Positions 2,652 to 58,603 of a stretch of DNA of 64,000 nt are shown here, in pieces. The position numbers and the translations under genes were made by a program. Each line of letters begins with the position of its first letter. Positions within the stretch are counted from its first letter, which is position 1. This stretch comes from Cyanidioschyzon merolae. Its lineage: Eukaryota. Below the pieces are notes generated by a model that did not search any database, was not told the DNA's origin, and saw nothing but the letters and a program-made list of their open reading frames with translations. The DNA lies in the NCBI GenBank assembly GCA_000091205.1, contig AP006499.2. The stretch is one strand, 5' to 3'.

Positions 2652-2891
2652 GACGAGCAAGCGCTCCAGGCGCTAACGAGTAATCCGTCATTTCGTGCGC
2701 GTTCATGCCTCAAACCAGCGTTACCGATCTTCAGTCCCAGTGTACATTTGCTTTTGCAAACTCGCAGTTACGACGAGCAAGCGCTCCAGGCGCTAACGAG
2801 TAATCCGTCATTTCGTGCGCGTTCATGCCTCAAACCAGCGTTACCGATCTTCAGTCCCAGTGTACATTTGCTTTTGCAAACTCGCAGTTAC
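2652..2891. repeat. Perfect tandem duplication, 2 x 120 bp
   Basis: Unit gacgagcaagcgctccaggcgctaacgagtaatccgtcatttcgtgcgcg...ttttgcaaactcgcagttac occurs back-to-back at 2652-2771 and 2772-2891. It is visible as the duplicated peptide DEQALQALTSNPSFRARSCLKPALPIFSPSVHLLLQTRSY in ORF 2538..2972. Confidence 0.85.
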
Positions 2892-5566
2892 GACGAGCCT
2901 ACTGCGAAAGCGATGTGGCCTCTGGTTGCTCGCCCTGCATGGAAACGCACCTTCGATTTTCTCGCCATGTGACGTTCGATCAGCTCACCACACACCGTAT
3001 CGCGCATCCGACTACGCTCTATAGTCTTCTTCTGTACTGGTTTCAGCGCACGCCCGTACTCGTGGTTCGAGTACGTCGTACTGAATTCATGGATGGGAAT
3101 CGTGCAGCACCGAAACCTGCACGCGTTGGACGCGCTCGTCGAAATGGGCAGCGGCGCAGTATTTGCGAGTTTCAGCCTGTCCCGTGCCAAGGGCTGCTGC
3201 AAAATGACGCAAATTTTTGAGCTACTCCTTTTCCAGCTCGTTGAATAGCAAGGCGAATGTCCGCCTCGTGCCTCCCTACATCCGAAACATTACGAGGCTC
3301 TGGCGCGGTCGGATATACTCTTGCCAAAAGTCGTCGAAACGAACAATTTGGACGCTCATTTACTCACTGAATGCAGCGTACCATACCAATCGTTGCTTCT
3401 CGATACAGTGACGAGAGCGTCGAGATCGGTCCTGCCGTCGTCATGCCACTTGTTGATATGCTTCCTCACGACCACTGGGCCCGAACTTAGATAATATCGA
3501 GGCTCAGAAAAAAAGTCAGGCCGTGGTGCATCTTCAGTACCGCCCGTCGGTTGTTCCACAAAGGTTTGACCGAGGAATTCTGGGGGCATGTGAGCGCCTG
3601 GTAGCACCTCGCCCCGAACTCCGACAATCATCTCACTGACGTTGTACGTCAAGGCAAGTGGGGCCGAACAAGACCTTCCCGAAAAAGAAGCTGCAGAGTC
3701 CTTCATGGCTTCCCGCATCTCACAGTTTTGTAAGATTCTTCCCGTAGATGCGTTTTCGTACGGAGCTCTTGCCAATGATTTCACGCAGATCCTTTCACAC
3801 AGGCCGTTTTGCGTTCACGTACTTTCTCGTCCTCTTTCTGAGCGGATCTTTCTCTTCTTTCTTCTGTGGTTTCTTCACTGTCTCGTTTGCATGATGGAAG
3901 GGCACGGGTGCCGTCGCTTAGCTCTATGTCCGTTTCTCCCTTGGGTCCTAGACGCACTGGATGGATGTTGCGACGGATCTTGGCTTTCTCTATCTTTGTA
4001 TCCACTATACTTCGAGCATCTTTTCGCCAACAACCCCGATGCAAGCACGTCTGCGAACCGAAATGCGCCTTTCCATTCTCTTCTGCTATCGAGCACATAC
4101 GCAACGCCGTTGCTCACGGCTAGTGAGGCTAATGAACGGCTTTCCAGAGAAAAATTCGTCTACGAACGGTGTCACGGATGCGAATGAATCGTCTATGGAT
4201 GCGAAAGCTTACAAACGGCGTTTGACAGCATAGAAGCTGCTTCCGATTTGATACAACCAAGGAGAATAGGCTGCCACAAAGTGCAGATTAACGCCATCAC
4301 CGGCTGTGCGCTCTCTGGCCAGTTTTCGGGATGCAAAGCGACGTAGTCTACGAGCCGGACAGAAGACCACCGGAAGAAGAACCCGCAATGCGCTCCGATG
4401 AAGGAAGAGGCGTCAAACGATCCCGTCTGTTTGGGGATGATTCGGTGAGCAAACGACAGCATCGCCGCTCGGGCTGATGTCGCTTTCATTCCCGCTTGTC
4501 TTTTCTTTACGAAGAGCGGTGTGCCGCTACTCTAGGACCCCAACACAGGTCTACCATTTCTCCGGAATGAAGTCAGGTCGACTAAAACGAACATCCGTGC
4601 CACGTGTCGTCAGCGTTCGTGTTCCAGTACGAATTCGCTGGAGTGCGCTTCGTCAGCGTGCGATGCGCTCCCGAAGAAGCGCGCGTCGTTCTTCGCCTAT
4701 CTGCATCGCTTCACCACTGTTCGTTATCAAGGGTATGGAAACGTTGCATGCATGCTGTGGGTTTTTGGTAGTATTTCATAGAGAACGGATGCAGTGGCAT
4801 TGCCTGGCGAGGAAACTGTTGTATATATTGATTCTGATGAGTTCGAGTTCGATTGCTTGACGCTGAGCATATCGCCTAAGCGAACGTTCCTTCATCAACT
4901 TGCTGAAAGTTCAGTAGCTGATTCGTAAGAGGATGACCTGTTTCCGCAATCAAGCAGCAACAGCATAAAATCTTTCCACATTCTCACTCCATTCCGAAGG
5001 ATACAGTTATTTTGTTGCATACCTGCGAAGAAATAAACCAGGACAAAAAGTATATTCTGGTTGAGGTATTCTGGTACCACCGATTATGAGCGTAACGGTA
5101 GCGGCAGCGCGTCCGTGGGCATCGCCGCTGTCGCTCTTCGAACCGACGCCCTTTGTGGTTCGGCACTGCCGTTCTGTCTCCGTGCAGCGACCGCACCGGC
5201 GCTACAGGCGCTATTGCTGCCGGTTTCGGCAGGCTCGGCACACGATAGGGCGTATGAAACGACCAGAATATCCGAGATGAAGTATAGGTCATGTAACCTG
5301 AGAGTAGGAGGTTGATGGCTACCTCACCGCACACTGAAAGAAAAACACACACAAAGAAAATAAGAAACGAAAAATGCGCATAATCGGAGAACGCTGGCCT
5401 ATGGAAACGTTTTGTCCATGAAAAGAAAATGTGCCGCTGTCGCTGCGATCGGGTTGAAGGGCAGCGCGCCGGCGGCGGCGGCGGCAGCGCCAGCGACCCT
5501 AGACACTAGTCATAACCTCGCCGCTGCTGACATCATTCTATTGCCGCTGCGGCCTTTCAGAGCTTT

Positions 5567-14356: not shown

Positions 14357-14440
14357 AAACACACGAACAGGCGACCTTTCTCGCGCCTAAACGACAAACG
14401 TTGCTGCGGTCGACAGCATCGTAGTGGCGGCGAACGCGCC

Positions 14441-16704
14441 CTATCCAAGACGTCTCCAACTGATGTGCAGACGCGTCCCAGTCTTTTCGGACCGGCCACC
14501 TACTAATGCATTCGACTTCTTCTCGTATATATCCATCTTGACAGATTGTCCCACAAAATGCTCTCGTGTCAATTCGGGAGGTCTCGTCTCCAGCACCGCA
14601 CATCTTATGTTGATTGCGGCATTAAAACGTCGGTTCACGAACTCCATATGTTTCTTGCCGTTGCTTTTAGAACTCACTCATGCACGTGGCCCTTCAACTT
14701 TCATCCTCCTTTCCATTTGCTCTTCCGTCAGCGCTCCGTACTTTTCTATATCTTCAGGGCTCAGCTGACACTTTTCCATCTCGACTCTCTGAAGTGTGCA
14801 CCCCGTTCATGGTGTGTATACGATGTTCGAAACTCATCTATCGGTATCGTAACGATACGCCTGGCGCATTCCTTGTACGTTTTTGTCGACGGAGCTGGCG
14901 TAGTCCCTTTTTTGGACGCCCTGCTGCATATGCTTCTACTAGCCTTTGACTCTCGTCCTCCGTGAAAGCGCTCAACTGATTGAAAAAGTTGGCGAATGCA
15001 CGCTGCTTCCTACAGTACATGTTCATACGCTGCCGAGCCGGCCGGGGCGTGGTACACTCTCCTCACAGCACATCCCAATGAGCAACGCGAACTTGTATGA
15101 ATTTCAGAAAAGCCTCAAAGTTCGCGCCGCGGCTCGTCACCTCGCTCAAAGCTTCCAGGTGCTCTTTCACTCCTGCATGCCATGTCTCACTTTTCTTCCT
15201 CGCATTCATGATTCCCGATTCTCGATAGAATCCCGCTCTCGAGAATCTCAAAAGACGCACGTCTTTCTGGCGCAAGTTACCGTCGATGCTCTCTTCCATA
15301 CGCTTCGGTGCTGCGATGGTTCTGATTATCGTGTGTTCCCATGGTCCGAGCCAGTGACAAAATCGTTACCCTGAACTTTCTGCGTCACTGGATCCGCCTT
15401 TTTGTTTTCTTCATGCTTCGTCATGGGCGATATCGAAGACGTAACTGGACGTTTCGCCTTCAAGCGCCGATAGTGTACGCACATGGCTACTCCATCGGTT
15501 TCGATTATCCCAGTGAATACCTTTTGCTTGCTTACTTTGAGTCGTTTGAAATCGAAGGTATTCTTCCAGTAGGTCTCCCGGTTTTCACCGGGGAACTCCG
15601 TGTTGCTTTCATCGAACTCCGGACGGATCTCCTTCGTGATGCTGTAGAGGACTCTGGAGTCGATGGTCACAAAATTTGACTCGATGTTGCACAACGGAAC
15701 GCAATTGAAGCGCTTCCCCATTAGGAAAGCCTTACGTCTCTCCCACTCTTCATTGTTTTTCCTTACTCAGCTTCATCTCCGCGTTGCGTTCTAGTTCTCG
15801 GTTCAAAAACATGAAATATCGCAAGACGAGGCGATTGTATCTTTCCTTATCTTTTTTTCAACTCTGATATCTTTTCCGCTGGACTCGCCAGCCCCAGTAC
15901 CGCACGGTGCTCTTGTATAACCGCACGGATTACGGAAGCTTCATTTGTGCCCTCGTTTGACGCCTTCTTGTCGACGAATTCGACCTCATCTTCATGCTTG
16001 GGATCCTTCGTGATGCCATTGATAATCGCCCACATTCCTTTGCGAGAGATGCCAGGGTACAGCGCAAACACGGCGCGTATCATGAAATGTTCGAGGTTCA
16101 CTGTGAAATGGTTCTTCAGGTTCGTGATGTACTTCATCGCTCCGTAGGTGTAAATATCCGCTTCACCCTTGTATCGAGTACCGTTGAAGCGGTATTCGGC
16201 GTAATTTTCGTGAACGCCATGCACTCGCTCATTTCTCCTCGACGGTTCCCCTGTACCAAGCATCAGGTGACGAATAAAGGTCTTGTCGAAAAACTCGTAC
16301 GGAACCTCGTCTGTTTCCATGTGCGTCACGTCGCGATACATCTCCTTTACGAAATGCAGCAGTCCTGACGATGCCTTTACAATACTCATGGGGTACGAGT
16401 CGACACGGTTTCTGATGGCGTCTCGCAACTTTTGCCTGCAGAGATCCTTGATATGCCCAAAAAGACAGGCTTTCACCACCATCTCGTCGTTGTGTCGTCT
16501 TTCGTGCGGGTTCTGACTTCGGGCTTCCCTGTTTTGCTTCTTCGTCTTGTCTTGTTCCTCTTTGCTCCGCCATGTTTTTCGTTGTCTCCGGCAGCCAGTG
16601 ACATTTAGCCTCCAGGTCCTCAACTTGCTTTTCCATAACTTTCTTGTATTTATTTTGGAAAGGAACGCACGTAGAACGCTTCTGCTACAAACGGCGAAAA
16701 TCAC
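14441..16704 (-). pseudogene. Degenerate Fanzor/TnpB-like nuclease ORF (copy 1), multiple frameshifts plus in-frame TGA
   Basis: Minus-strand ORF pieces 15847..16704, 15326..15721, 15063..15299, 14838..15026 and 14441..14677 concatenate into one protein homologous to copy 3. Motifs: [10 protein letters not shown] (RuvC-I-like GxDxGxT), YKECARRIVTIPIDEFRTSYTHHE (cf. TnpB V-x-V-NPAYTSQTC preceding the zinc finger), and ...KHMEFVNRRFNAAINIRCAV (TnpB RuvC-III ADxNAAxNIlrrG, but the catalytic Asp is Arg in this copy). There are two frameshifts around 15722-15846 and an in-frame TGA before the RuvC-III segment. Confidence 0.6.
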
Positions 16705-16913
16705 TTGAATGAGCTTACTTGAGGGTTGGAAAACAATTCAGCTGAAAAACTATACTTTGCTATTACTTGAACGCAAATACAACTTTTACGGTAGAACAAC
16801 ACGCAAATATTCAGGATCGCGTTTCCCTTCAACGGCGAGATACTCCTCCTGTCTCATGCCTGCCAGATATCCCAGGTGTGCGTATCGACCACGCTATATA
16901 GAACAAATAACAG

Positions 16914-17568
16914 AGACTAACGATGAACTAGCAACGATATAAATATTTATTCCCCCTAGATGAAACGTTAAAAACGGTAAAGGCTTCCCGTACTGTCGAA
17001 AGTTTACCTTACAGGCGGAGGGTCCCGCGAGCCGGGCGACTCTGCTGGGCTGGTGCCCGGTGTGCCTCTAAAGTGGCAGGTGCTGTGGCGAGACCTGAGC
17101 AACTCGTCCGAAACGCAGTTCAAGCTGGAATAAGGGGCATTTGGCCTGCGTTTCAGCGTCGCCCCGGTCGCAGTGGACTCCCAGCATATCGCTTCGCGCT
17201 GCCGCAGACAGTATGTCTGTCCGCGTAGCTTGCAGGCTCCCCGAATAATTATGTATTCCGACCTCGTGTCGAGTGCACCACGCCTCGAGTCAACGCCCGC
17301 AGCGGAACAGCAAAGCCGTACAGTCTCCGGGATATATCTGCTCTGGCGGTTTTGGCGCCACCGCGGGGGCCGCAAGGCAGGCACTCAGCACACGATAGCG
17401 TGTACAAAACGACCCGTATACTCGGGAGGAAGTAAAAGCAATGGAACTTGAGGGCAGGTGCTTCATGATGGACGCCTTTTCGATTACCACTATCCATCCC
17501 GCAATCTGGGATCCATGGTCGATGGAGACGAATTTTGTCATCGGAAAAAATCGATCGCCATCCCATCG
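16914..17568. repeat. Repeat A (655 bp), the 5' non-coding module of the Fanzor-like element; near-identical direct repeat of 18844-19497
   Basis: About 99% identical to 18844-19497, with only a handful of substitutions and one 1-nt indel by eye. A roughly 80% diverged homologue lies at about 55925-56550 inside copy 3. Confidence 0.9.
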
Positions 17569-18384: not shown

Positions 18385-18843
18385 TCATCGCCGAGCTGAG
18401 CATCGCGCTGTGCACACTAGACATGATTCGGAAGCGATGGACCTGGATTTCGAGCCGAGTGGGGAGGCTCTGCAGCTGAATAGCACCAAGCTTGTAAAAT
18501 TCTCCTAACAACATACATATTTGCAGACATTAGGTAGTGCACAATTTGATGACCCGCACAACAGCGAGTTTGCGGTATGTCTCGAAAATCCAGTGGGCAT
18601 GTGCAGAGATACACATATGAGGTACAAGGCAAATTCCACAAGAATCCGACGATGCGTCTCAAGTGTACGGATTGTTTGTCCACGTCATCGGTGCATAAAG
18701 AAGCCGCTACACGGCACCGTGACGCAAAGACAGGTATCACACCGACGCTTTCAGAAAAGTACACACTTTGCGTAGCGCATTGCTGCGCGTCTTTCCAAGG
18801 TCCAGCGAAACCGAATCGAGCCTAGATCGAGGTGCACAGCAGG

Positions 18844-19497
18844 AGACTAACGATTAACTAGCAACGATACAAATATTTATTCCCCCTAGATTAAACGTTA
18901 AAAACGGTAAAGGCTTCCCGTACTGTCGAAAGTTTACCTTATAGGCGGAGGGTCCCGCGAGCCGGGCGACTCTGCTGGGCTGGTGCCCGGTGTGCCTCTA
19001 AAGTGGCAGGTGCTGTGGCGAGACCTGAGCAACTCGTCCGAAACGCAATTCAAGCTGGAATAAGGGGCATTTGGCCTGCGTCTCAGCGTCGCCCCGGTCG
19101 CAGTGGACTCCCAGCATATCGCTTCGCGCTGCCGCAGACAGTATGTCTGTCCGCGTAGCTTGCAGGCTCCCCGAATGATTATGTATTCCGACCTCGTGTC
19201 GAGTGCACCACGCCTCGAGTCAACGCCCGCAGCGGAACAGCAAAGCCGTACAGTCTCCGGGATATATCTGCTCTGGCGGTTTTGGCGCCACCGCGGGGGC
19301 CGCAAGGCAGGCACTCAGCACACGATAGCGTGTACAAAACGACCAGTATACTCGGGAGGAAGTAAAAGCAATGGAACTTGAGGGCAGGTGCTTCATGATG
19401 GACGCCTTTTCGATTACCACTATCCATCCCGCAATCTGGGATCCATGGTCGATGGAGACGAATTTTGTCATCGGAAAAATCGATCGCCATCCCATCG
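18844..19497. repeat. Repeat A' (solo copy of the element's 5' module), direct repeat of 16914-17568
   Basis: Near-identical to repeat A. It is not accompanied by the Fanzor-like ORF and lies between the Rab18-like and p23 genes. Confidence 0.9.
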
Positions 19498-24482: not shown

Positions 24483-27400
24483 CTTGGCGGGCTGAAGAAC
24501 CCGCCCGCCAAAAACGCTCTCCAGACGCAGCAGTTGGAAGGCGCCATGACCCGTAAGCGCTTGCGCGTTCGCCTGCGGCATACTGCGGAGCCACAGTGCA
24601 CCAAGGAAAGTGTGGTTTTTGCAGGGGCTTTGCCAACGGGAGGCGAATTTTTCTACTGCCGGTCAAGGGTGCAGAAGAAGCACTCGGGAGATCCTGAAAG
24701 CATTCATCGAGGCTATAGCATAAAGAAAGTTGGACGAAGGAGGTGAAGTGTCTTTGTGCCCTCTGCAGCGTGACTTGTCGATGAGCAGCGGTCGACGCGT
24801 ACCGGCACGCTCGCTAGAGCGCTCTTGCAGAGCGACGTGAAAAACTTGCATTCATGAAGAAAACACCACGGGAACGTAGCGCTTAGGAATATATGCCTAA
24901 ATGCAGTTTTTGGTGCTCGTTCGTCCAGCTGTGACGGAACGCCGATGGAGTCGTAGAAAACGGGATTCGCCTGTCATAGACGTGTACCCAAGCTAGACTG
25001 AACTGGCAATGGGTCGTCTAACGCGCCTGTCAATACTGCAGTTTGGGTCTTTTTTCTACTGCCTTCAACACAATCCTCTGTGCGCTTTTTCTGTGGCTGA
25101 TCCGTGTTCCTCTATCCTATCTTGGGCTCTAAATACGCGGGTCTTTAGCTTTCCCCCAGCCCCAGTGGAAGCAGTCGTACGACGTTGAGGGAGCGTTCAA
25201 GCGCCGATTTCGGAGCTCCCAGCTCTTGTCCATGCATTTGATGCACAGGGCGAAGTTGCGGCCTATGATTCGCTTGCCATTTTCTACTTCACTGCATACA
25301 CCCTGACTGTGCACACCGCAGCAGTGACACTACTTTGGGCAGGTGTTCGCAAACTTGCACCAAATCCCTCGCCTCAAGCCCAACTCTGTGGTGCGTAAAC
25401 GCTCGCTTCACCTCTTTCTACATGCCCCTGACGAGTACGGAAGGCGCAACGCATTGCCTTCCTCCGTTTCCGCTCTCGGTGCCGGACCCTATTATCACGG
25501 GCTTCTTCTGGGCGATACCCGCGGCGAGTTCAGTGTCCACTGCATGTGCAAGCGCATGCTGTTCCATCCTACACGAGGATTTGTGGAACGGGATGTCGAT
25601 CTTGATGAATCGAGAACCGGTGACGAATTCCAGGCGGGGAAGCAGTCGAGAAATTTGGATCCGTCAATACGCATTTTTTTGCCAAGCGGTGACGCAATCT
25701 CTGCACCGGAAGCGATCGCTGCGATGACGTGAGTCCGAGTCCAGACCCTTTTCTGGACAAGCGGAAGGAACCGGAGCCTCCAACAGCATAGCTCTCGAGA
25801 AGTATCATGCTACTGTGGTATGTCGTTCGTCGCTAAACACAAAGATAGGAGGATTTGTTTTTTGTACGGATCCGATTACGAATTGAAGATAAATTTTATT
25901 TTCAGGACAATGTTACGAACAAGTCTTCAAAAGACGACGACGACGACGCCTTTTCTCTTCGTACATCGGGTGGTGCGAATTGCTGTGCCCACGAATCCCT
26001 ACGAAACATCAAGATCGAAGAAATGACGCAGACGTGATTTGATCATTCTACTCGTAAAGAACGGAGAGGAATGGATGCTTGGACGTGTGCATTGGATAAT
26101 GGTATCCGGCGTTTACGAATGCCTGGTCGAGGCCCGTACAAATCATCCTGAGTCCTGTGCCGAAACGAATTCCATCGGCTGGGCGTCGAAGAAGCCACTC
26201 CGAAAACACGACCGACATTCGTGTAACGACAGCCGGCTCCGTACGCCGTTATTCCCGCACATCGAATACTGGGGCTGCAAATCCAAAAAACAACTTTGGA
26301 AAACCTGGATAGACGGGAACAGTGTGAGCGGTTCAGTGCCCCAGTTCAATTATCACGCGGACGAGGACTGCTTCGTACCACCAATAGAAAACGCAGTATT
26401 GGGATGGAGCACTAGTATCCAGGTGTGCACCTATCATGATAGAAGCGTTTCCAGTCGGCACCATCGAGGATCCCTCACTTGCCTCACCTACCGATTATCC
26501 TGGAAAAAACGGCCTGCAAATGATGAATGTATCACGAGCACTGCATTCCAGGGTGGCATTTGTCTTGCAAACAAAACGAAATGTGCGCTTTATTTCCCCC
26601 ACATGTAACCCAGAAACACCTAAATGCCTCGACTGGATCGGTCGCGCTGGTGGCAGTGCACAAAGCGTCCAAGTGTGTCGTGCGGTCGCGAGTGCCACTG
26701 CGGAGTGACGGCCTCTGCATGTGCTGGAGTCACGATATGCATACAACCATGCCATGAAGTATGTGCCGATGTCAACGCACACTCTGTAAGGTCGAAATGC
26801 TCTTCGCACGAAGAAACAGGCGACAGCCTCTCCGGTGTCATATCCGGTAGAACGTGGCTGTCACGATGGATACCAGCGGCCGACTTTGATACACTCTTGC
26901 TGGGACTCTGGTGCGCGTGCTCACGGAACTCATGCGAGGGCAGCGGAATTTACAGCTGCATGTAAAGGATTGCGGGTTCTGATGCCGGGGGCTGTTGTCC
27001 CGATTCACTCTGTCAAACGCTTACCACGGAATGAACTGGTTCGATGTATGGTGCATTGAGTCTGCGCCATCCCTTGCATGTCCACGGGCATGGTTTGTCG
27101 TGAACGTATATCGCGTGAGCCCATAACCGTGGCGGGTATCGAGTCTCGCTCGTGTCTGAGTACAGCTGAAAAAATTCTTATCAGAAGGTTTGGAGAATGC
27201 CTGATAGGGAAATAAGACTCGCGTCTGCACATCAGGCGAATAAGCTGATTCGGTCTTCCTGTTGATACCGCAGTCAGCTAGCTGTCAAGGCACACAAAAA
27301 GATTCACGATATGCTCGTCTAGCGAAACGGTTTCACACGCATACCAGGCGAACTAGCTGGCTCGTTCTAGCTATCGAAGCTGCAGCGAACGAATCAGCGA

Positions 27401-38214: not shown

Positions 38215-41053
38215 AGCGGCTACGACGAAGCACAAGTTTTCTAGTTTTCGGAAGTAAGCACGTGGATATGGCGCTCCGAGTCTCTGGTGGTGATGTTCGT
38301 TTCAAACGAAAAATGCGGATGAAGATGGATGAAAAAGTGCATGCGCATGCACCGGTCTCTCGGTCGAGAGATCCGGCACCTGCCGCAGCTGCTCTGCCGG
38401 AGAAGCGCACGGCAGTGGTGGTGCTGGCGTCTCTGAAGCGAAACCAAATCAGCAGACGTGAACGGTATGTTGGGCATTGCGTGTCCTACCCAAAGCATGT
38501 GCAACACGTTGCTTGCAACGGAGACGCTACTGGGCCAGTTTTCTTACAGAAACGCTTCGCCGTCGAGCAATGGCCAGCGAATGTAACATTTTCCCTGAAT
38601 CGTTGCGGTTCGTTGAAAATTGCTTGGAAAATCGGTGATGACGGCTGCGGTGCACACGGAACTCCACACAGAAGCACCTGTTCATGTCGTGCCCCTTGGG
38701 GGATATAGCGTGCTCTGGGTCGGCTGAAGACCGGATTTCTACGGCCTGGTTGCTTCTCATCGGGGCTTTCGTCGGCGCACAAGGAACACAGTGGACGAGA
38801 CTTTTGGTACCAGCGTCGTTCACTTCGCTGAACCCTCGGGTCTCGATGCCCTCGCGCAGCGGCGGTACTGATTGACGACATCCATGAGACTGCAGCACGG
38901 ACACGAGGGTGCAATGTATCTCATATGAATACTCATCGGAACCGGTCTTGCATACCAATCTGATACTCATTTCAGAGTAAAAAATGAAATGGACACACTC
39001 ACATAAGTAGAGCGAACACGCTAAATTTTGGGCCTGTTACCACTTTCTGGAACACCAGTTTTGCGGGCTTTCTCTGTGACTGCTTCGTTTTTCGTCGCCC
39101 CAGTCTGAGGCGTTAAATATGCCAGTCTCTAGTGTTGCTCTAGCTTCGATACAAGCAGTCGAAAGATATTGATGACGGCATTCTAGTCCCGATTTGGCAG
39201 TTTCCGGCAGATGTCGAGGCATTTCATGCACAGGTGGAAATAGCGATCTACGCTCCGCTGGCTGTTGTCATCTCCCCAGCATGCAGCTTCAATGCGTCCT
39301 TGGAAGCGTCGACGCTAGGATGTGGTCAGGCATACCCACATGTCCATCGAACCTTCTCGTTTTCCGAGGTTCGGCCCTGTGGCTCGTGAAGGTCCATGTC
39401 ATCGCTCGGCGCTTGCCCTTGGCGGGTACGCAGAGCTCCCCTCGATGCAGTGCTTTGTTTCCGCGTTCCATGCCGTTCCCTGCGACCGTGGACTTTTGGA
39501 AGATCCCCCTGGCGAGTGCTCTGTTCGGCACATGCGGAAGCGCACGCTGTTGCATTCTACAGCGTTTCTTTTTTAAAGCGATTTTGTCGAAGATGAATCT
39601 AGTAGCGGGAGGAAGATCCTGGCCGGATTCGCAGTCGAGAAATCTCGATCTACCTACGTACCTGTCGTGCGAAGCGGTGACACACGCTTCACTGGGAGCG
39701 ATCGCCACGATAACTGAATTCCGAGGCCAACCTCCTTTTTCCATGCAAACAGAAGAGACGGGCGCCCCTTCGGACATATCTTGTGTGGACTACCATGTTA
39801 CTACCGTCGAATACCATGTCGTCGATGGCGAAAAACAGAGAATGTTTTTCTGCTGAACGGGATCGATTTTCTGACGGTGCGAATTTCAATGTGCTTTGGA
39901 TATGAGTTGGTCAACAGGTCCTCAATGGGCGAGGTCGAGCTCTGGACTTCGTCAATCCTGCAGTCCGAACGGATGTACCCAAGAAATCGGGTTGGAGCAA
40001 CATGATCGAAGACTTGAAGAATACGTGATTCTAGCATGCTAGGCGCAGGACAGAAACAAGAGCGGAGGCCTGTACGTGTGCACTGGATATTGGTGTTGGT
40101 GAATTTACGAATCCTTCTTCGAGAGCGTCTAAAATCATCTTGATTCCCGACACAACACGAATTCCACCTGCGATACATCGAATGATCCGCTCTTGAAAAA
40201 CGAGCTAGAATCCGAAACCTACACGTGAATCCGCACGCCGTTATTGCTGCACTTTTAATGTCGAGGCTGTACATCTAAAAGAATGTCCTGAAAGATCTCC
40301 AGGCGGGGACAGATCGCGTCGTTCAGACTTCGATTTGAATCTGACACGAGCGCACATTTGCTAGATATTGGTGTCAGAGATGGATCGTGGATATGTTTCA
40401 GGGCTCTGGGAGATTTTAACCCCAATGTACTCGATGAAAGGCTCTATTCTTTCTTTCAGGCCATGTACAGATGGTGTCTGGAATTCGGCATCGCAGCGAT
40501 TCGAAGTTCCGGTTCACGATAGGGCACGCTCAACAACTAGCGTCCGACGTTGCTAAGGTGAAGACGCCAAAATTACCATGCAAACTTCATGTCGGTGATG
40601 CGCGGAATTCGGGAGCGTTCGCCACGTTGGTTTATTTTGAGCGCAAAACAAAACTTGTGGCAAACACTATACATCTGTGCGTTGAGCCTGTCGACGGCGC
40701 TCTGTTCCGGGAGTCGGGCGTAATGTCAGCACTGGGCTGCAGTGCATCCGGATCCCTTGGTGAACAAAAAGGCATTGTCGGCGAATAGAGGTGAGAGGTG
40801 AAAATTGGCTGGTTCATGTCTTGCGCTTTGAAAATCAGGGCCCGATTCAAGTTCTCTACCACACACGTTCGATGTACATGCTTGCATCCTGATCACAATC
40901 AAATGACCTCTTAATCTATATCCAGTGGAAATTCACGTCTGCATCACAGCGAAAACCCCCCGAGTTTCCGCAGCGTCGCCCCTGCATTCGCCAAATAATA
41001 TTTTCAACGTCCAGTTCGCCAGGAGCGTTCCTCCTCTAACACGCGTGAGATAC

Positions 41054-41698: not shown

Positions 41699-41858
41699 GC
41701 AGGTGCCTCGCGTAACGAGTGCTGTCCAGGGGTTGCGTTGGCGCCGGTGTGCTCATGTCCATGAAGCGATTTGCTGGACGGTGTGCATGATTGTACTGTT
41801 ATGTACTGTAATACAAAGTTTGTACGGAATGCCGGCTTTACGCGCACTGGGGCTGCCT

Positions 41859-42126
41859 CGCGTGCCCTGATCGTGGCCCTTGGCATGCAGAAACTGTACA
41901 GAAACGGATTTTGCTGCCCAGACATGTCGCGTGCCCTGATCGTGGCCCTTGGCATGCAGAAACTGTACAGAAATTCCTTTTCCTGCCCAGACATGTCGCG
42001 TGCCCTGATCGTGGCCCTTGGCATGCAGAAACTGTACAGAAACGGATTTTCCTGCTCAGACATGTCGCATGCCCTCATCGTGGCCCTTGGCATGCAGAAA
42101 CTGTACAGAAATGCCTTTGCCTACCC
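41859..42126. repeat. Minisatellite: 69-bp unit x about 4 (units start 41861, 41930, 41999, 42068)
   Basis: cg[c/g]tgccctgatcgtggcccttggcatgcagaaactgtacagaaa[cggattttgctg/ttccttttcctg]cccagacatgt repeated head-to-tail, about 90% unit identity. It lies between PRA1 (-) and the DGAT1-like gene (+). Confidence 0.9.
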
Positions 42127-48455: not shown

Positions 48456-50379
48456 GTCGGCATGGTGTTCACGTGGATACGCAGATGCTAGAGCATGGTG
48501 TGCACTGCGGGAACAGGTCATACTTGGAGGTGTCGACGCTTGCAATGCTAGGATCGTTGGTCGTCGCTGTCAATGAGCGATATCCGCGGGACTGCTTGGC
48601 TGGGCGATGTCACCAAGCTTTGATGAAAGTTTTTCCTCGAAGCGAAAATTTTTTATATAAATACACCGGATAAAACCCAAGTGGATCGTGTCTACAACGC
48701 TGCTGCTGGCGCAGACGAGGCAATGCTCTGGCATCAGAGGCCTTAGTATATGACAAGCAGCGGGAAGTAGCGCGGGTTTTCATGGGTACGCTTCACGCCG
48801 GTGGTATCACGAACGATCATCCCCGGCGTCTGTGGGAAGAGATGGATATGGCTGGGCGGCAGAGATGAGCTGCGCGTATCATGATACCCATGGCAGCGTA
48901 AAATGGAATGCCTCACGAGACCAAGTAGACCGTTCAGGTTCAAGTTTGGCGCTCGATCCGATTTCTTCTACAGAACCGTATCTGCCGGCTTTTTGAGTAA
49001 CTGCTTGTTTTTTCTCGTTAAATGCCGACTGCACCCACACACACACCGGGCTCTTCTTTCGCTCCAGTTTCGGGGCGAAAAGTCGAAGGATGTGGATCGG
49101 AGCGTTCAAGTCCCGATTTAGCTACTTTTGGCCGTTGTTTACGCAAATCACACGCAGGTAGAAGCAGCTATCTCCGCTTCGCTTATCATTTCCATCTCGT
49201 TTGTCGACAGTCTCGACGCACTCCGCGCAGCGGTGACATGTAGCTGTTGGCATTGGGTCCTATACGTCTACGAGACCTGCTGCTACGTGCACTGCGCCGT
49301 CGCACCTGAACGTTTACTTGATCGAACGGTACATTCTCGTGATGAGTACAGAAGGTTAACCTCTGTGCCTTGCTCCGTTTTCGCGACAGGTGTCGTCAAC
49401 GACGACCACGGGCATCCAGCGGGCTATCCGTTCGGCGCGTACGCTGTCCGCAGCAGGTGCAAGCGCTCACCGTTCCATTCCATAGAGGACTTGAGGAGCG
49501 CGATGCTTTCCAGGATAAAGCAAGTACCTGAAGCAGAATCCAGGCTGAGGAACAAGTCGAGCATTTCGATTTGTCTACGCTCTCTTCCTGCAAAGCAGTG
49601 ATACGTTCGCCGCAAAAAGCGATCGCTGCGCTGACTCAACCCCGAGTTTAAGGTCCATTTCTATGCCAGTAGTAGAGACGACAGCCTCTAGGCGCATATA
49701 CAATGCGAGGTATCATGCTGCTGATGCATTGCATTTCTCTGATGCCTCTCAAGTGAGGGGGATGTTCGTTTCGAACGGAATCGATTGGTTGAAGTAAGAC
49801 GTTTGGTGAATGTTCCGGATGGTCTGGTGGATCATTCGTCAAGGAACGAAACGTCCGGTACGTTTCTTCGTCCGTGGAGCCGTGCGAAGGGCTTCGCCAA
49901 CGATTTCGCTTGAAACACGAAGATCGGGAGCTTGGAAGCCGCGTGCTTTCCGCATACTGTACATAAGGAAAGGAGAAGAGAGCAGGCCTTTGCGTTGGAA
50001 TTCGGTGGTGGTACCACTTATCTTACGTACCGTATTACGAGAGCCCCGCGAATAACGTTGAAGACGGTTGGATAACGAATCCAGTGGCAAAGCGTCGACG
50101 CAGCTACTTCGAAACCTGATTAAGAAACCTACACTACGATTGCATTCCAAAGCACTTATAGTCTCTCATCTCAAATTCGTTTTACCCCCCAGGTGCATGT
50201 CATCAAATTCATTTTCGTGGTTTATAGCAAATATGTTCGAAGTGCTCTCATTTGGAAGAAATAGAAAATCCATGGAAAGGGGCGGACCTGGAAGTCAAGG
50301 ATCCTGCAGGCTCGATGTCGCCGGGTTCAACAGCTTTTGGAAAAAAATCCTCTTCTTGGCAACCATAGAGCGAAGAAGA

Positions 50380-50770
50380 ACAAGTGACGGAGAAGAACAA
50401 GAAGGGAGATAGGTGAGAAAATGTATTCGTCCGAAGTGACGATGACGAGACTTTAGTGTCACAGAAGACGCGAGTTCTAGGAATCCTCCTATCGCTGAGT
50501 TCAACCAACGGCAGGAAACGCATTGAGTTCGTGAACCGAGACTTTAATACCGCCATCAATATCAGACGATGTGTGGCGTTGGAGACGAGTCCCGAAGAAC
50601 CAAGGCAATGCAACTTCATGATGCAGCCTCTGACGCTCGTCGTACGACTGGATACACCGAGGCCGATAGCAGGCGGCCGGGGGAAAAAGACTGCGAAGCG
50701 TTTGCGGAACAGTATGTATACACTTACCGTTCAGGATCTTAGGGCGTTGTCCGTTTTCACTCATCACATA
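50380..50770 (+). mobile_element. Truncated 3' fragment of the Fanzor/TnpB-like element (copy 2), plus-strand orientation
   Basis: Plus-strand frame reads RVLGILLSLSSTNGRKRIEFVNRDFNTAINIRRCVALETSPEE, homologous to copy 3 RVKFRGLLAMESATSCNKKWMEFVNRDFNAAINIRRRAVMERR. Downstream, the conserved tail aggcggccgggggaaaaagactgcgaagcgtttgcgg matches the rc of the copy 1/3 tails (gtaggtggccggtccgaaaagactgggacgcgtctgcac). Confidence 0.5.
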
Positions 50771-52513: not shown

Positions 52514-53371
52514 TCAAGCGAAGGCATATGCCTGGAAACGAAGTTTCTCAGCGAGGTACCGATTCGCCGCAAGAATACCTCTACCGTCGAGAATGAACTG
52601 CGCTCCGTTTGGCAAGAGACAAACACCACCAGCTTCCTCGACAAGCACTTGACCAGCGGCGAGATCCCAGGTATACGGACCCCATTCCGTGACCACATCG
52701 AAACGTCCACAAGCGACGAAGGCCATATTCAGGGCGGCACTGCCGGTGCTTCGAACCGCTTGGGTGCCGTTCTCGAGGATAGATCGCACCATTTCCAGCA
52801 TCATGGCGACTTTGGAGGCGGAGCGATCACTACCGTATTCGGTAGCAATACATGCATCGGGGAGTTCGCTCACACCGCTACAGAAGATCGGCTTGCCGTT
52901 CAGAAACGCCCCTCGACTGCGGCGGGCAACGAACATCTCCTCCATGATGGGGTTGTACACAACGCCCAGTCGAGCTTGACCTTCGGTGATCAACGCAATA
53001 GAGACAGCACATAGCGGAATATGGTGTACGAAGTTGGCCGTGCCGTCGATCGGGTCGATTGCCCAGGTCGGCGGGTCCAAGTCTTTGACCTGGAGGCTTT
53101 CAGGGCGCCCGTCGAAACCCTCTTCCCCGAGCACTCTGTGGCCCGTACCGTACCGCTCCAGGATGCGCCTTCGGCAGAGCTCCTCGACAGCTCGGTCAGT
53201 TTCTGTTACCGGATCCGTACGTTTCTTAACGTCGTATGCCGTGTGGTACCCGCCCACTGGAGCAGTTCGGAACGGCCAGTCTTTGAAGAAAGCCTGGCGA
53301 ATGAGCTCGCCGCACTCACGAGCCAGTGCTTCTGCGAAAACAAGTGCCTGATCCAGCTCCGACTCGAGCAT
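52514..53371 (-). CDS. Inositol monophosphatase family protein (IMPase / 3'(2'),5'-bisphosphate nucleotidase fold)
   Basis: VTETDRAVEELCRRRILERYGTGHRVLGEEG...WAIDPIDGTANFVHHIPLCAVSIALI...WDLAAGQVLVEEAGG carries the IMPase metal-binding motifs (DPIDGT, WD-AAG). The start is taken at MLESELDQ, and the ORF track's upstream extension to 53539 runs into the transposon tail. Confidence 0.85.
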   Translation of the reverse strand: MLESELDQALVFAEALARECGELIRQAFFKDWPFRTAPVGGYHTAYDVKKRTDPVTETDRAVEELCRRRILERYGTGHRVLGEEGFDGRPESLQVKDLDPPTWAIDPIDGTANFVHHIPLCAVSIALITEGQARLGVVYNPIMEEMFVARRSRGAFLNGKPIFCSGVSELPDACIATEYGSDRSASKVAMMLEMVRSILENGTQAVRSTGSAALNMAFVACGRFDVVTEWGPYTWDLAAGQVLVEEAGGVCLLPNGAQFILDGRGILAANRYLAEKLRFQAYAFA

Positions 53372-53467
53372 ACCTCGAGCCTTCAATCCTATGCAGGTAT
53401 ACGCTGCGTTGCCTGCGTAATGTCGTAGTAACCGTGAAGCTTGTCGTGGAAAAGTGCAGCACCGACA

Positions 53468-56400
53468 GCGAACGCCTTTCAAAAGAAAAACGCTGCCGCC
53501 GGCAGCGTACAGCCGTGGCGAAAAACCCGCCCTCGACAAGACGTCTCCAGCTGACGTGCAGACGCCTCCCAGACTTTTTTGGACCGGCCACCTACTACTG
53601 GTTTCAACTTCTTCTCATATAATTCCACCTTGTGAAGTTCCCCATAAAATTCTCTCTCGTCAAGTACGCAAGTCTTCTTTCCATCACCGCCCTTCTCCTG
53701 ATATTGATAGCGGCATTAAAGTCGCGATTCACAAACTCCATCCATTTCTTGTTGCAGCTGGTAGCACTTTCCATTGCAAGTAGTCCTCGAAATTTAACCC
53801 TCCTTTCCATTTGCTCATCTGTCAGCGCTCCGTACTTTTATATATCTTCAGGACTCCGCTGGCACTTTTCCATTTCGACCCTCTGAAGTGTACACCCCAG
53901 TTCATGGTGTGTATGGGACGTTCGAAACTCATCTACAGGTATTGTAACAAAACGCCTTGCGCACTCCTTGTATGTTCTTGCCGTTGGAGCTGGTGTAGTC
54001 CCTTTTTGGGTCTTCCAGCGCCCTGCTCCGTACGCTACTAGGAGCCTCTGACTTTCATCCTCCTTCAAGGCACTCAACTGATTGAAAAAATTCGCGAATG
54101 CACGCTGCTTCCCACAATACAAACTCATTCGCAAACGAGCCCACCGGGGCTTGCTGTACTCCTCCCACAGCGCATCCCAATGGGCGATGCGAACTTCCAT
54201 GAATGTCCGAAAAGCGTTAAAGTCTGCTCGTCGGCTCGTCACCTCGCACAAAGATTCCAGGTGATCCTTCATTCCTGCATTCCATGTCTCGATTTTCTTC
54301 CTCGCATTCATTATACCAGATTCTCGATAGTATCTTGCTCTCGAGAACCTCAAAAGACGCTTGCCTTTCCGACGTAAGTGTCCGTCAGTACCATCTTCCG
54401 CGCGCTTGGGTACTGTGATGTTTATTATATTCGTGTTTGCGGGGTCCGCGCCACCGACAAAATCGTTGTTCTCATGCACTTCTTGCGTCGCAGGATCCGC
54501 CTCTTTGTTTTCTTCAAGCGCCGATAGTGTACGCATATGGATACGCCATTGGTTTCGATTATCCCAGTGAATACCTTTTGCTTGCTTACTTTGAGACGTT
54601 TGAAATCGAAGGTACTCTTCCAGTACGTCTCCCGATTTTCACCGATGAACTCTGTCTTCCTTACATTGAACTCCGGACAGATCTCCTTCATGATGCCGTA
54701 GAGGACTCTGGAGTCGATAGTCACAAAATTCGACTTGATGTGGCACAATGGAACTTCGTTGAAGTGCTTCTCCAGAACCGCAGCCTTCCGTTTCGCCCAC
54801 TTTTCATTTTTTTCCACACTCAGTTTGATCTCCGCTTTGCGTTCGACTTCTCGGTTCAAAAACATGACATAGTGCAGGATGAGGCGATAGCGTCTTTCTT
54901 CATCTTTTTTCATATCTAGTACCTCTTCTGCTCGATTCGCCAGCCCCAGTGCCGCACGATGCTCATGCATAACCGCACGGATCACAGAAGCCTCATTCTT
55001 TCTCCTGCGCGATGTCTTCTTGTTTACAAATTCGGTCTCCTGTTCGTTTTTACTAACGTTCGTGACGCCATCGATGATGGTCCATATCCCTTTGCGAGAC
55101 AGGTCCGGGCGGAGTGCGAACACGGCGCGTATCATGAAACGTTCGAGGTTCATCGTGAAATGATTCTTCATGTTCGTGAGGTACCTCATGGCCCCGTGGG
55201 TGTGCATATCCGCGTCACCCTTGTATCGAGTACCGTTGATGCTACAGAAGATATATTTTTCGTGGAGGGCGTGCACTAGCTCATTTTCACTCCGCATATC
55301 CCATGTGCCAAGCATCAGGTGACGAATAAAGGTCTTGTCAAAAAAACTCGTCCGGAACCTCGACTGTTTCTGTTCCCGTCACGTCACGATACATCCCCTT
55401 CACCAAATGCATTAGTCCCAAAGAAGCCTCACGAACACTCGTGGAGTACGAGTCGACACGATTTCTGATGGCCTCTCGGAAATCTTCCTTGTACGGATCC
55501 TTGATATGTTTAAGAAGACAGGCTTTCACCACTATCTCGTCGTTGTGTCGTCTTTTGTGCAGCTTCTGACGTCGGGTCTCCCCGTTTCGCTCCTACGTCT
55601 TCTCCTGTTCCCCTGAGCTCGGCTCTGATTTTCGTTTTTTCCCAGCAGCCGGCGGCACTGGGCCTCCAAGATCCTTTACTTACATCTCCAAAATTTTTTT
55701 GAAAGAGCACGCTCTTTGAACGATTCTGCGATAAAGCGCGAAAAAACACTTGAGTAAACTAAACTGAGGGTTCAAAAACGATTCAATTGAGAAACTATGC
55801 CACGACTTCAACACAAATACATCTTGTACGGTAGAGCAAGAAGACAATGAGTAGAATCGCGTTTCCCTTCAACGGCGAGAAACCAATACTGTCTCATGCC
55901 TGCCAGGATGGAGGTGCACGTATCGACCGCGCTATATAGAACAATGAAGAGAGACTAACCACTAACTGGCAACGATATGAGAAGTTCGTTCCCCCTCTAT
56001 GATAAACGTTACAAGTGGAAGGCTTTCCATGTTGTCGAAGGTTTACGTTCTAGGTGGAAGGTCCCTCGAGCTGGACGAATCTGCCGAGCTTGCGCTCCGT
56101 GCGACTCTGAAATGGCGGCCACTGTAGTGAAATCTGTGCAACTCATCCGCAGCGCAGTTTACTCTAGGACTCGGAGCGAGTAGAATGCATCTGGGCGACG
56201 CCAATGTTGCAGTTCTCTCCTAGCGTGCCGCTTCGCGCTGCCGCAGGCAGTAGGTCTACCGGTCCAGTTTGCAAGCTCCCGGAATAATGATAAACCCTGA
56301 CCCTGTGGCGGGTCGACGACGACTGGAGCGGACGCCGTCAGTGGTATGGCACAGCTCGTCTTTCTTCGTGTTGTAAAAGCACAAGTAGTATAGGCGGTCT

Positions 56401-56560
56401 TGCGGGTGGAGCTATGCAGGCACTCGGTGCACGATAGAACAAACGAAACGACCAGTTTCTCCCAGAGAACGTATACATCATGGATCCTAAAGGTAGCACA
56501 TATCGTGAAGGAAGCTTCCCTGAATGCCAGTATCCATGGTCAACGTAAACATTCTTTCAA
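53468..56560 (-). mobile_element. TnpB/Fanzor-like element, copy 3 (3' tail + degenerate ORF + diverged repeat-A-like 5' module)
   Basis: Colinear homology with 14373-17568 over the entire length, including the non-coding 5' module (55700-56550 vs 16700-17560) and the 3' tail. It fills the IMPase(-)/CBS-domain(+) intergenic region. Confidence 0.6.
53604..55749 (-). pseudogene. Degenerate Fanzor/TnpB-like nuclease ORF (copy 3); RuvC-III Asp retained, one nonsense codon and at least 2 frameshifts
   Basis: Pieces 55338..55532, 54425..55315, 53838..54536 and 53604..53810 (-). Motifs: [18 protein letters not shown] (RuvC-I-like), YKECARRFVTIPVDEFRTSHTHHELGCTLQRVEMEKC (TS-motif plus degenerate Zn-finger), and MEFVNRDFNAAINIRRRA (RuvC-III D-x-NAAxNI-RR). 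There is a TAA after ...SPEDI where copy 1 has GAA (EKYGALT...). Confidence 0.6.
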
Positions 56561-56710
56561 TCCAACAGAAAAGTACATCGGGATACCTGTGTCCGCTGAG
56601 CGAGACGTCGTCCGCCCAGGGCGCTGCCCCCGCGGGAGATCCGTCGAGTGCACCAGATAGGCCGCTCTGGCGTGCGTTCGGTGACCTTAGCTTTTTAAGC
56701 GCAATATTCG

Positions 56711-58213
56711 TTGAAACTTATAATGTGGGCCAGCGTTCTTCGGTTCTTACCAAAGCATAAGGGAAACTTAGGTCGTTGTATGTCCGTGAGAGCCAGCGTC
56801 TTGCGTTCTGAGCATACGGCTCCGTTTTGGGAAGCACCATTGAGCAGGGCGTTGCCGCTGTACCAGGAGGGTTTCCTGCCCCGAACGGCTTCTGTGAGCC
56901 AAGCCGAGCCGACGCGCACCGAAACTGCACCCGTGCGCTTTCAGATGGCGCCAAGTGGAGCGGGGGACTCGTTGGTTTTTTTGCATGAAACATCGTCGGT
57001 ACGTGGTGCTCTCGAAGAGATGGTGCACCGGAATACCGCCTTTGTTCTCGTTGTGGGCGACCCCTTTAACCGGTCATCGCCAAAGGCGGACGTTCCTGCG
57101 TCAACTTCGGATATTGTGCGCATCTCCAGCGAAGCTGAGGGTGATGATCAGCGCGTTGATACCGAGCATGCTGCCGTGATCGGGTTGTTCACAGAGCGCG
57201 ACCTCTTGCGCTGCCTGGCGGACGCCGTCGCGGAGCAGCGCACCGGCGAAGCTGCAGCGCTCTCATTCCGTCTGCGGAAGGCGATGAGTCCGCTTTACGA
57301 TCGGTTTGGGACGCTAAAAGTGTCATCAAATACCATATATGATGCTGTTATGGTCATGCGGGAACGGAACATTCAAACCATACCCATCATTCGCGAGGAG
57401 GAGCACGAAGAGGACTACATCTTGCCGGGGGGTCATCCAGCAGCGGGCGAGAGCGCTTCCAGCAGCTACACCCTGGCATTGCCACCTCGATCGTTTTGTG
57501 GCGTTCTGACAGCACGCGATGTGGCTCGCTTCTTCCTCGCCCAAGATGCTAGCGTCCAAGATGCAGTCTGTAGCCTGGAGACGTCGACTGACGCTGGCGT
57601 CAGAGCATCGCGATCGACACGTCCGATGCTTCTGCGTCATCTCTTGTCTTGGCGCCTGCGTCGACTCTTTGAAGGCGCTCGACCTTTAAGTGATACTTTC
57701 CTCGAAGAAGACATCGTCGTGTACGAATCCGAGCATTACAGGGTGGTTTCAGTCCCTCGCTCGGCATCAGTGCGGGACGCGATCGCGGTCATGGCACAGC
57801 ACGATGTTCGTACGCTTCTGATTAGTGAGGACGCTAGTTCCGGCTTCGATGCAGCCGGACCCTATCCCAGTATTTACGGTGTCATTACGTTGCGAGATCT
57901 CATGAGGCAGGTCTTCTATCCACGAAGAAATCCGCTGGCGCTCAGCATGCAGACTCTCTTTCGTGAGCGCTGGACAGCGGCAGGGGTATCGAGGCCGCAA
58001 CTCGCAGCCGAGGAGCGCAAGTACGGAATCTCACCTGATGATGAAGTGGCGCATGCGCTGCGCTTGGTCGGTGGTATGAACGAGCGGCACATCCCAGTGT
58101 ACGTCTACAATGACGCTGATCAGACGAGCAACTGCGTCGCGATGGTGAGCGTCAAGGAGATGCTGTCGGGTGTCCATGCGGCAGAGCAGCGGCGGCGCGG
58201 GCAACGGTACTAA
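56711..58213 (+). CDS. CBS-domain-containing protein
   Basis: 500-aa ORF with several CBS-like segments (VIGLFTERDLLRCLADAV, CGVLTARDVARFFL, YGVITLRDLMRQVF, VAMVSVKEMLSGV). The N-terminal half is low-complexity. Confidence 0.5.
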   Translation: MKLIMWASVLRFLPKHKGNLGRCMSVRASVLRSEHTAPFWEAPLSRALPLYQEGFLPRTASVSQAEPTRTETAPVRFQMAPSGAGDSLVFLHETSSVRGALEEMVHRNTAFVLVVGDPFNRSSPKADVPASTSDIVRISSEAEGDDQRVDTEHAAVIGLFTERDLLRCLADAVAEQRTGEAAALSFRLRKAMSPLYDRFGTLKVSSNTIYDAVMVMRERNIQTIPIIREEEHEEDYILPGGHPAAGESASSSYTLALPPRSFCGVLTARDVARFFLAQDASVQDAVCSLETSTDAGVRASRSTRPMLLRHLLSWRLRRLFEGARPLSDTFLEEDIVVYESEHYRVVSVPRSASVRDAIAVMAQHDVRTLLISEDASSGFDAAGPYPSIYGVITLRDLMRQVFYPRRNPLALSMQTLFRERWTAAGVSRPQLAAEERKYGISPDDEVAHALRLVGGMNERHIPVYVYNDADQTSNCVAMVSVKEMLSGVHAAEQRRRGQRY

Positions 58214-58470: not shown

Positions 58471-58603
58471 CAAAACTGATGCTATGTGCTCCACATCGCC
58501 GCTTTGACCTGCGCAAGTTGTACCGTATTCGCAAATAGCGCTCAAAACTGATGCTTTGTGCTCCACATCGCCGCTTTGACCTGCGCAAGTTCTAGCGTAT
58601 TCG
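58471..58603. repeat. Duplicated 60-nt motif (2 copies separated by 11 nt)
   Basis: caaaactgatgct[a/t]tgtgctccacatcgccgctttgacctgcgcaagtt[gtac/ctag]cgtattcg at 58471-58531 and 58543-58603, about 260 bp downstream of the CBS-domain gene stop. Confidence 0.75.

Follow-up and report, generated by a model that had tools for sequence, protein, structure and literature searches.

Identity, independent decay and insertion setting of a pseudogenized CMe-1A copy in Cyanidioschyzon merolae 10D

Does a broken nuclease gene within a 64,000-nucleotide stretch of Cyanidioschyzon merolae DNA (contig AP006499.2; the whole stretch is termed the window) belong to an element that was once active, and did it decay independently of a similar gene in the same window? 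An earlier note, made from the sequence alone, had read positions 53468 to 56560 as a full-length, Fanzor-like copy (copy 3) whose lesions differed from those of another copy (copy 1). The analyses described here indicated, with high confidence, that the minus-strand sequence from 53473 to 56563 is a non-functional, pseudogenized copy of CMe-1A, a ~3.2-kb interspersed repeat of C. merolae 10D that carries a Fanzor1 gene. The finding of the earlier note was correct but not new, the CMe-1A family having been published in 2013 and being also present in Repbase. About 150 copies, each ~80% identical to a consensus of ~3 kb, were described for C. merolae by Bao and Jurka (2013, Mobile DNA 4:12, PMC3627910), and copy 3 is an ordinary dead member among them. 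In that study (PMC3627910), CMe-1A was described as having no terminal inverted repeats (TIRs), while its target-site duplication (TSD) and class were left unassigned; the 5′ 635 bp were 95% identical to a separate repeat, TE-N2_CMe, with about 70 copies; the CMe-1 gene was listed as a single exon (supplementary table); and an intact Fanzor1 was reported to be still encoded by some copies. The last point agrees with the suggestion in the earlier note that an intact master copy may exist elsewhere.

Three proteins encoded nearby (Nop56, an inositol monophosphatase and citrate synthase) matched entries of C. merolae 10D exactly, which identifies the window as nuclear DNA of this red alga. The 3169-bp CMe-1A consensus and the 734-amino-acid (aa) CMe-1 protein, both from the supplement of PMC3627910, served as references. 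Copy 3 covered the full length of the consensus (1-3169), with 82.0% identity when gaps were counted and 84.2% when they were not (blastn and global alignment). The blastn match paired 56537-53473 with consensus 45-3169; the first ~45 nt were fuzzy, and the 5′ boundary is given to within about 20 nt. These limits were nearly identical to those proposed in the earlier note. None of 18 inverted-repeat pairs linked both termini, so that no TIRs join the ends of copy 3, and no TSD was evident in the flanks. CMe-1A begins with TE-N2_CMe as its 5′ module, continues with a single-exon gene whose 734-aa product, a Fanzor1, is a eukaryotic homologue of TnpB that contains a RuvC nuclease domain, and finishes with a structured 3′ terminus; the Fanzor1 gene is the only open reading frame (ORF), and a transposase is not encoded. 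Copy 3 resembles the published element in species, full-length colinearity, the TE-N2_CMe module, the 734-codon ORF, the lack of TIRs and a divergence typical of the family. It differs from some published copies in being dead where those are intact, and nothing else that separates them is categorical.

Each part of the element was located in copy 3, on the minus strand. The 5′ module at 55944-56563 corresponds to consensus 1-635 and is TE-N2_CMe, a repeat in its own right that in 10D is joined to the Fanzor core, and positions 55951-56456 within it matched both consensus 1-635 and a solo TE-N2 at 18843-19347. A non-coding leader between TE-N2 and the ORF, delimited by an alignment of 46 5′ junctions, occupied 55692-55943 and included the hairpin GCGCGGTCGATACGTGC (about 55917-55933), which is the start of the core common to all subfamilies. 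Codon-by-codon comparison with the consensus placed the Fanzor1 pseudogene (consensus ORF 906-3110, 734 codons) at 53532-55691. The structured 3′ terminus (consensus 3040-3169) was found at 53473-53603, overlapping the last ~22 codons and with a terminal hairpin at 53473-53492. A family hidden Markov model (HMM) applied to the six-frame translation matched copy 3 at 55344-55586, 54479-55348, 53865-54521 and 53634-53804, and the minus-strand reading frame could be followed in pieces at 55532-55338, 55315 to ~54540, 54536-53841 (up to a TAA at 53840-53838) and 53810-53604. Despite the broken frame, 77% of the aligned codons were identical to CMe-1.

Comparison with the consensus ORF detected nine lesions: the start and stop codons were both lost, three stops interrupted the frame and four indels shifted it. 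In the direction of reading, these were a change of the start codon from ATG to TTG (55691), a TAA at codon 4 (55682), a TAG at codon 33 (55595), a +1 insertion (~55347), a 49-bp deletion (54517), a TAA at codon 633 (53840), a −1 deletion (~53650), a +1 insertion (~53580) and a change of the stop codon from TAG to GAG (53534). The catalytic D-E-D triad is still encoded within this destroyed reading frame. The codon for the RuvC-I Asp (D431 of CMe-1, in GGADPANTN) lies at 54444-54446, as located from the invariant columns of an alignment of 36 diverse family members (A2); the RuvC-II Glu (E603, in VDEFRTS) and the RuvC-III Asp (D672, in NRDFNAAINI) are also kept, at 53928-53930 and 53721-53723, respectively. 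Two other family-invariant residues have been replaced (D381N and G433A), the latter being a Gly two residues past the RuvC-I Asp.

Copy 1, the other full-length degenerate CMe-1A in the window, lies on the minus strand at 14384-17543 and was 84.9% identical to the consensus (17543-14421 matching consensus 1-3130). The earlier note had described copies 1 and 3 as colinear over ~3.1 kb at roughly 80% identity, and a consensus-anchored alignment bore this out, in which the 3056 ungapped columns were 77.0% identical and the ORF 79.9%; a blastn search of the window with 53000-57000 gave one long match, of 53515-56456 with 14424-17417, at 75.5% over 3017 columns. Every lesion named in that note was real. 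The TAA following CQRSPEDI in copy 3, where copy 1 has GAA, is the stop at 53840-53838; the frameshifts near 55315/55338 and ~54536 correspond to the +1 insertion at ~55347 and the 49-bp deletion at 54517; the in-frame TGA of copy 1 between VEGPRA and VSSKS, which copy 3 reads through, is at 14680; and the frameshifts placed near 15722-15846 in copy 1 are +1 changes at 15858 and 15755. The lesions had been undercounted, copy 3 having nine and copy 1 having seven frameshifting indels (16617, 16588, 15858, 15755, 15336, 14919 and 14805) together with three in-frame stops (16607, 15065 and 14680). At family-invariant positions, copy 1 carried D672R, W532P and G570A. The contrast drawn at the RuvC-III Asp was accurate for copy 1 (NRRFNAAINI, with the Arg codon at 14629-14627) and for copy 3 (NRDFNAAINI), but a third, plus-strand copy (copy 2) reads NRDFNTAINI (50471-50599) and not NRDFNAAINI. 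When both copies were compared with the consensus, no ORF-disabling lesion was common to copies 1 and 3. With lesions that do not overlap and homology that stops at the element ends, the claim that the two copies decayed independently was upheld.

The Fanzor identity proposed for these copies was likewise confirmed by the match to CMe-1A and its CMe-1 protein and by the family profile. A profile built from A2 gave exactly three matches at E ≤ 1 among the 177,635 sequences of the PDB, and all three were Fanzor1 proteins: those of Parasitella parasitica (9cf0; E = 8e-21), Spizellomyces punctatus (SpuFz1, 8gkh; E = 1e-11) and Guillardia theta (GtFz1, 9cer; E = 8e-9). The invariant columns of A2 include the Asp of DPG, the Glu of DEFRT and the R-D-N-A-N residues of NRDxNAAxNI; thus, D431, E603 and D672, all present in copy 3, are invariant in the context D...[DE]xxT[ST]...RDxNAAxNI. 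Membership of the CMe-1 family in Fanzor1 is supported at the sequence level, because the A2 profile matches only Fanzor1 structures and the catalytic motifs are invariant. The solved Fanzor1 proteins (9cf0, 8gkh and 9cer) share with CMe-1 a homologous WED/REC-RuvC region, the order D...E...RD, a eukaryotic host and carriage by a transposon. CMe-1 differs from them in its profile-level distance and in having no CxxC...CxxC cysteines seen in the Parasitella alignment. A KKRK motif resembling a nuclear localization signal is present at the N terminus of CMe-1. Pfam searches with the ORF pieces and with a stitched protein produced nothing above threshold, only a sub-threshold, Cas12f1-like TNB match, and phmmer with the single consensus protein found no relevant match in the PDB, such that the family profile was required. 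A word-indexed search returned 46 close relatives, all from hot-spring metagenomes, and an exhaustive profile search returned 1478 relatives at E ≤ 1e-3; among ten of the latter that were looked up, one was a hypothetical protein of the green alga Tetrabaena socialis.

At the DNA level, related loci in hot-spring metagenomes numbered more than 361 confirmed matches, of which 80 (L001 to L080) were fetched. The ORF was broken in almost all of the 80, the longest ATG-initiated frames being 722 and 747 codons. The best-preserved relative was in locus L002 (3261-5516), with an open frame of 752 codons, 722 from the first ATG. The corresponding protein, P0030, was found with its full 752 residues in several metagenome contigs, has four 25-residue units and ends 36 residues early; it may represent a still-functional copy in an environmental Cyanidioschyzon.

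The phylogeny of the copies was star-like: every copy, including those from other genomes, was ~13% from the consensus in the ORF and 17 to 20% from each other copy. The ratio of nonsynonymous to synonymous substitution rates (dN/dS) was 0.41 for copy 1 versus the consensus, 0.40 for copy 3 versus the consensus and 0.45 for copy 1 versus copy 3. This ratio fell along the protein, from 0.7 to 0.9 in codons 1-140 to 0.22 to 0.34 in codons 420-734, the RuvC half. Mean pairwise identities at codon positions 1, 2 and 3 among 59 distinct copies were 0.88, 0.92 and 0.76 in the RuvC half and 0.82, 0.81 and 0.79 at the N terminus. As dN/dS was ~0.4 and third codon positions were the less conserved in the RuvC half, the divergence must partly predate the death of the copies, and much of the ~15% by which each copy has diverged arose under purifying selection on the protein. 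The copies descend from several lineages that diverged under selection, and a single burst does not account for the decay of all of them. These results support the reading of the earlier note, that the copies are dead members of a once-active family, in a refined form: not all of the divergence is post-mortem decay. The CMe-1 family was long under purifying selection, and individual copies such as copy 3 died afterwards. Bao and Jurka had remarked on the long-lasting coding capacity of the family (PMC3627910), and the selection result fits this remark.

The 3′ end of copy 3 is 102 bp upstream of the ATG (53371) of an inositol monophosphatase (IMPase) gene, and a distance of about 160 bp separates its 5′ end from an opposite-strand CBS-domain gene. 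Copy 3 was inserted, independently of copy 1, in a divergent promoter region of ~260 bp between these two genes. The 3′ end of copy 1 is 28 bp upstream of the RAD50 ATG (14356), with its 5′ end 110 to 215 bp from a Ras-family GTPase gene, and its flanks show no relationship to those of copy 3. A search of the fetched loci with the flanks of both copies detected no orthologous insertions. A similar setting was observed in the metagenomes: in 29 of the 37 distinct insertions with a callable neighbor, a co-oriented long ORF began 4 to 437 bp (median, 70 bp) beyond the 3′ end. These downstream ORFs were mutually unrelated, ordinary genes (such as those for KTI12, ATP synthase beta, phosphoglucomutase and peroxiredoxin). 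Where the 5′ end of a copy could be defined, the usual upstream neighbor was a divergent gene start. The proportion of 29/37 (78%) departs from 50% (p = 0.00075) and agrees with the 75% expected from a promoter-side preference without an orientation rule. A rule by which the 3′ end faces the gene start was rejected on these grounds, a promoter-side preference alone predicting 75%. The short distances to the ATG arise because intergenic regions are very short. What can soundly be concluded is that copies prefer, or survive in, intergenic regions on the promoter side of genes, above all divergent ones.

Many metagenome copies started at consensus ~648, at a short GC hairpin, GCGCTCGGTGAGCGC (GCGCGGTCGATACGCGC in 10D), this 5′ core hairpin spanning consensus ~648-664. 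Depending on the subfamily, the sequence upstream of it was TE-N2 in direct orientation, TE-N2 inverted or other repeats of up to 1.7 kb; as these upstream sequences differ between copies, TE-N2 is one of several 5′ modules. In this family the 3′ end is fixed while the 5′ end varies, which is the pattern of rolling-circle-type elements. Within the ORF, directly before the RuvC-I Asp, there is a tandem unit of 75 to 80 bp (25 residues, ..ATQKVQDNDLVVDAxKHEExKEA..), present in 1 to 5 units per element and located at consensus 2117-2196 and at about 54446-54517 in copy 3. There, the 49-bp deletion (consensus 2080-2128) extends from ~40 nt upstream of this unit into its first ~12 nt, which are lost.

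At its 3′ end, the element reads ...CGCCACTACTGTACACCGNTGGCG, after which comes a hairpin that closes at the final base. This terminal hairpin is kept as two sequence variants, CGTCGTTCGACTTTCGAACGGCG and CGTTTTTCTTTTGAAAGGCG; past it is a GT-rich decamer that is only loosely conserved. Folding z-scores for the last 130 nt were −3.5 for the 10D consensus, −4.6 for the metagenome majority consensus, −2.05 for copy 3 and −1.6 for copy 1, and the 10D and metagenome consensus ends folded into the same closed, multi-helix structure. A hand-built structure of the 3′ end was 81.6% paired, with a covariation score of 0.149 compared with 0.138 ± 0.007 in shuffles. Rfam gave no match in the window. By analogy with other Fanzor elements, the 3′ ~130 nt could be the scaffold of an omega-RNA or else a structure of the transposon end. 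The terminus is the obvious omega-RNA candidate because Fanzor omega-RNAs are transcribed from the transposon end, where they may overlap the stop codon (PMC10432273). Variable 5′ modules, the tandem unit in the ORF and the structured 3′ end are features of the anatomy that had not been described before.

Other explanations of the locus were weighed against this evidence. It is extremely unlikely that the gene is intact, with its lesions representing assembly or sequencing errors, spliced introns or sites bypassed by programmed frameshifting. Apart from the retained catalytic triad, nothing was found in favor of an intact gene, and it would have to accommodate nine separate lesions, including a 49-bp deletion, a missing start codon and a missing stop codon, two replaced family-invariant residues (D381N and G433A), a consensus gene consisting of a single exon and the same scattered decay in metagenome relatives. 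The 10D genome, moreover, is a completed Sanger sequence in which there are only about 27 introns; this also counts against an intact gene. Similarity that is confined to the element boundaries, with unrelated flanks, makes it very unlikely that copy 3, instead of having been inserted independently, came from a segmental duplication involving the region of copy 1. The two copies do share a chromosome arm and an orientation, with 39 kb between them, and a nearby 656-bp piece (16913-17568 and 18843-19497) seems to have been duplicated or converted recently, but the ORFs of copies 1 and 3 differ by 20%, no less than either differs from copies in other genomes (17 to 20%), and more than 360 copies exist in other contexts. 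The proposition that the element is not a Fanzor but a bacterial TnpB, a viral gene or contamination has next to no probability. The sub-threshold Pfam match and the lack of a PDB relative in the single-sequence phmmer search would suit it; the profile search matched only eukaryotic Fanzor1 structures, however, and the element is set among intron-less nuclear genes of C. merolae, with a KKRK motif in its protein and a named relative in T. socialis.

A further proposal, compatible with a dead gene, is that the dead element has been co-opted, its 3′ end serving as the promoter or 5′ untranslated region of the IMPase gene and its 5′ side possibly serving the CBS-domain gene. The proximity of the 3′ ends of copies 3 and 1 to the IMPase and RAD50 ATGs, the co-oriented genes beyond the 3′ ends of metagenome insertions and the expectation that Fanzor elements transcribe outward across their 3′ end are consistent with such a role. 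Promoter-side insertion without an orientation rule gives the same proportion of co-oriented genes, however, the short distances follow from very short intergenic regions, and conservation of the 3′ end does not exceed that of synonymous sites; co-option was accordingly considered unlikely. Several other results do not sit easily with copy 3 as the non-functional remnant of a Fanzor1 element with a structured 3′ end. The zinc-finger region, which lies between RuvC-II and RuvC-III and as a C4 finger formed part of the motif published in 2013, reads, in the consensus and in copy 3, ...TSYTHHELGCTLQRVEMEKCQ..., with two Cys and three His and no CxxC pairs, and the canonical CxxC...CxxC zinc finger of TnpB and Fanzor is absent from the family consensus. 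An AlphaFold2 model from a shallow alignment (15 close homologues) had a mean predicted local distance difference test score (pLDDT) of 31.7 and gave no independent confirmation of the fold. RNAalifold found almost no consensus structure in the 3′ 150 nt, the covariation of the hand-built structure was marginal (26 of 500 shuffles reached the observed score), and neither the 3′ 130 nt nor the synonymous sites over the putative omega-RNA were conserved beyond synonymous sites in general. Some residual function of the RNA of copy 3, or of its DNA as a promoter, may also exist.

For the intact CMe-1 element, a mechanism may be proposed because it is established for Fanzor and TnpB. By analogy, intact CMe-1 protein would bind an omega-RNA that originates by transcription of the element's 3′ end and takes its guide from the flanking DNA, and would cut matching DNA, by which the element would persist or spread; movement itself would be by a transposase acting in trans or by recombination. 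No HUH Rep or Y1 transposase and no helicase was found in or next to the element, and the upstream modules in the metagenomes, as judged by eye only, contained unrelated repeats and a reverse-transcriptase fragment and no transposase. CMe-1 resembles the IS200/IS605 TnpB-omega-RNA elements and the Helitron2-type Fanzor carriers of Chlamydomonas in lacking TIRs and an evident TSD, in having hairpins at or near its ends and in the succession of a nuclease gene and a structured 3′ terminus. It differs from both in that no HUH transposase or helicase was found and that its 5′ modules vary by subfamily. Membership in the Replitrons was considered and rejected, Rep proteins being reported absent from red algae.

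The broader proposal is tentative and rather doubtful: that CMe-1 is a hairpin-ended, TIR-less Fanzor1 element in which the ~130-nt 3′ end is the omega-RNA scaffold and the 5′ module is exchangeable, that it lodges preferentially in promoter-side intergenic DNA, a few tens of bases before host start codons, and that its outward transcription may drive or feed host genes. If this were true, C. merolae would be a tractable system for studying what a Fanzor does for its element in the native host. The alga has efficient homologous recombination and a tiny genome. As a single locus, copy 3 matters little: the family has been catalogued since 2013 and has about 150 decayed copies, of which it is one. 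The family is of some interest, having been described before Fanzors were known as RNA-guided nucleases, and the new leads are modest: the long selection on the protein, the structured 3′ terminus with its conserved hairpin and the location of copies beside host gene starts.

Further remnants of the family and other repeats were detected elsewhere in the window. Copy 2 (50157-50705, plus strand, opposite to copies 1 and 3) is an old, internally deleted CMe-1A remnant with 67 to 70% identity, in which 50157-50324 (consensus 786-948) is joined to 50464-50705 (consensus 2840-3084) and NRDFNTAINI is kept. A very old, Fanzor1-like relic with internal deletions lies on the minus strand at 3002-3721, between a Snf7-domain gene and Nop56, and has ~28% aa identity to copy 3 (tblastn and HMM); a TE-N2-like fragment (5135-5308, minus strand; consensus 84-257, 76.7% by blastn) is ~1.4 kb upstream of this relic. 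The solo TE-N2_CMe occupies 18843-19497 on the minus strand, with 19473-18843 matching consensus 1-628 at 80.6%. Between it and the 5′ module of copy 1 (16913-17568), 1.9 kb away, identity was 98.6%, while each was ~19% from the consensus; their match ran 25 bp past the published 5′ end, an extension absent from the metagenome loci. The pair looks like a recent local duplication or gene conversion. A separate dispersed and apparently non-coding repeat was present at 25419-26288, 39493-40280 and 49330-49635, with ~67% identity between copies, and occurred also in several metagenome loci. Tandem arrays consisted of a perfect 120-bp duplication (2652-2898), at least three units of ~69 bp (41858-42126) and a 72-bp duplication in or near a coding region (58471-58603).

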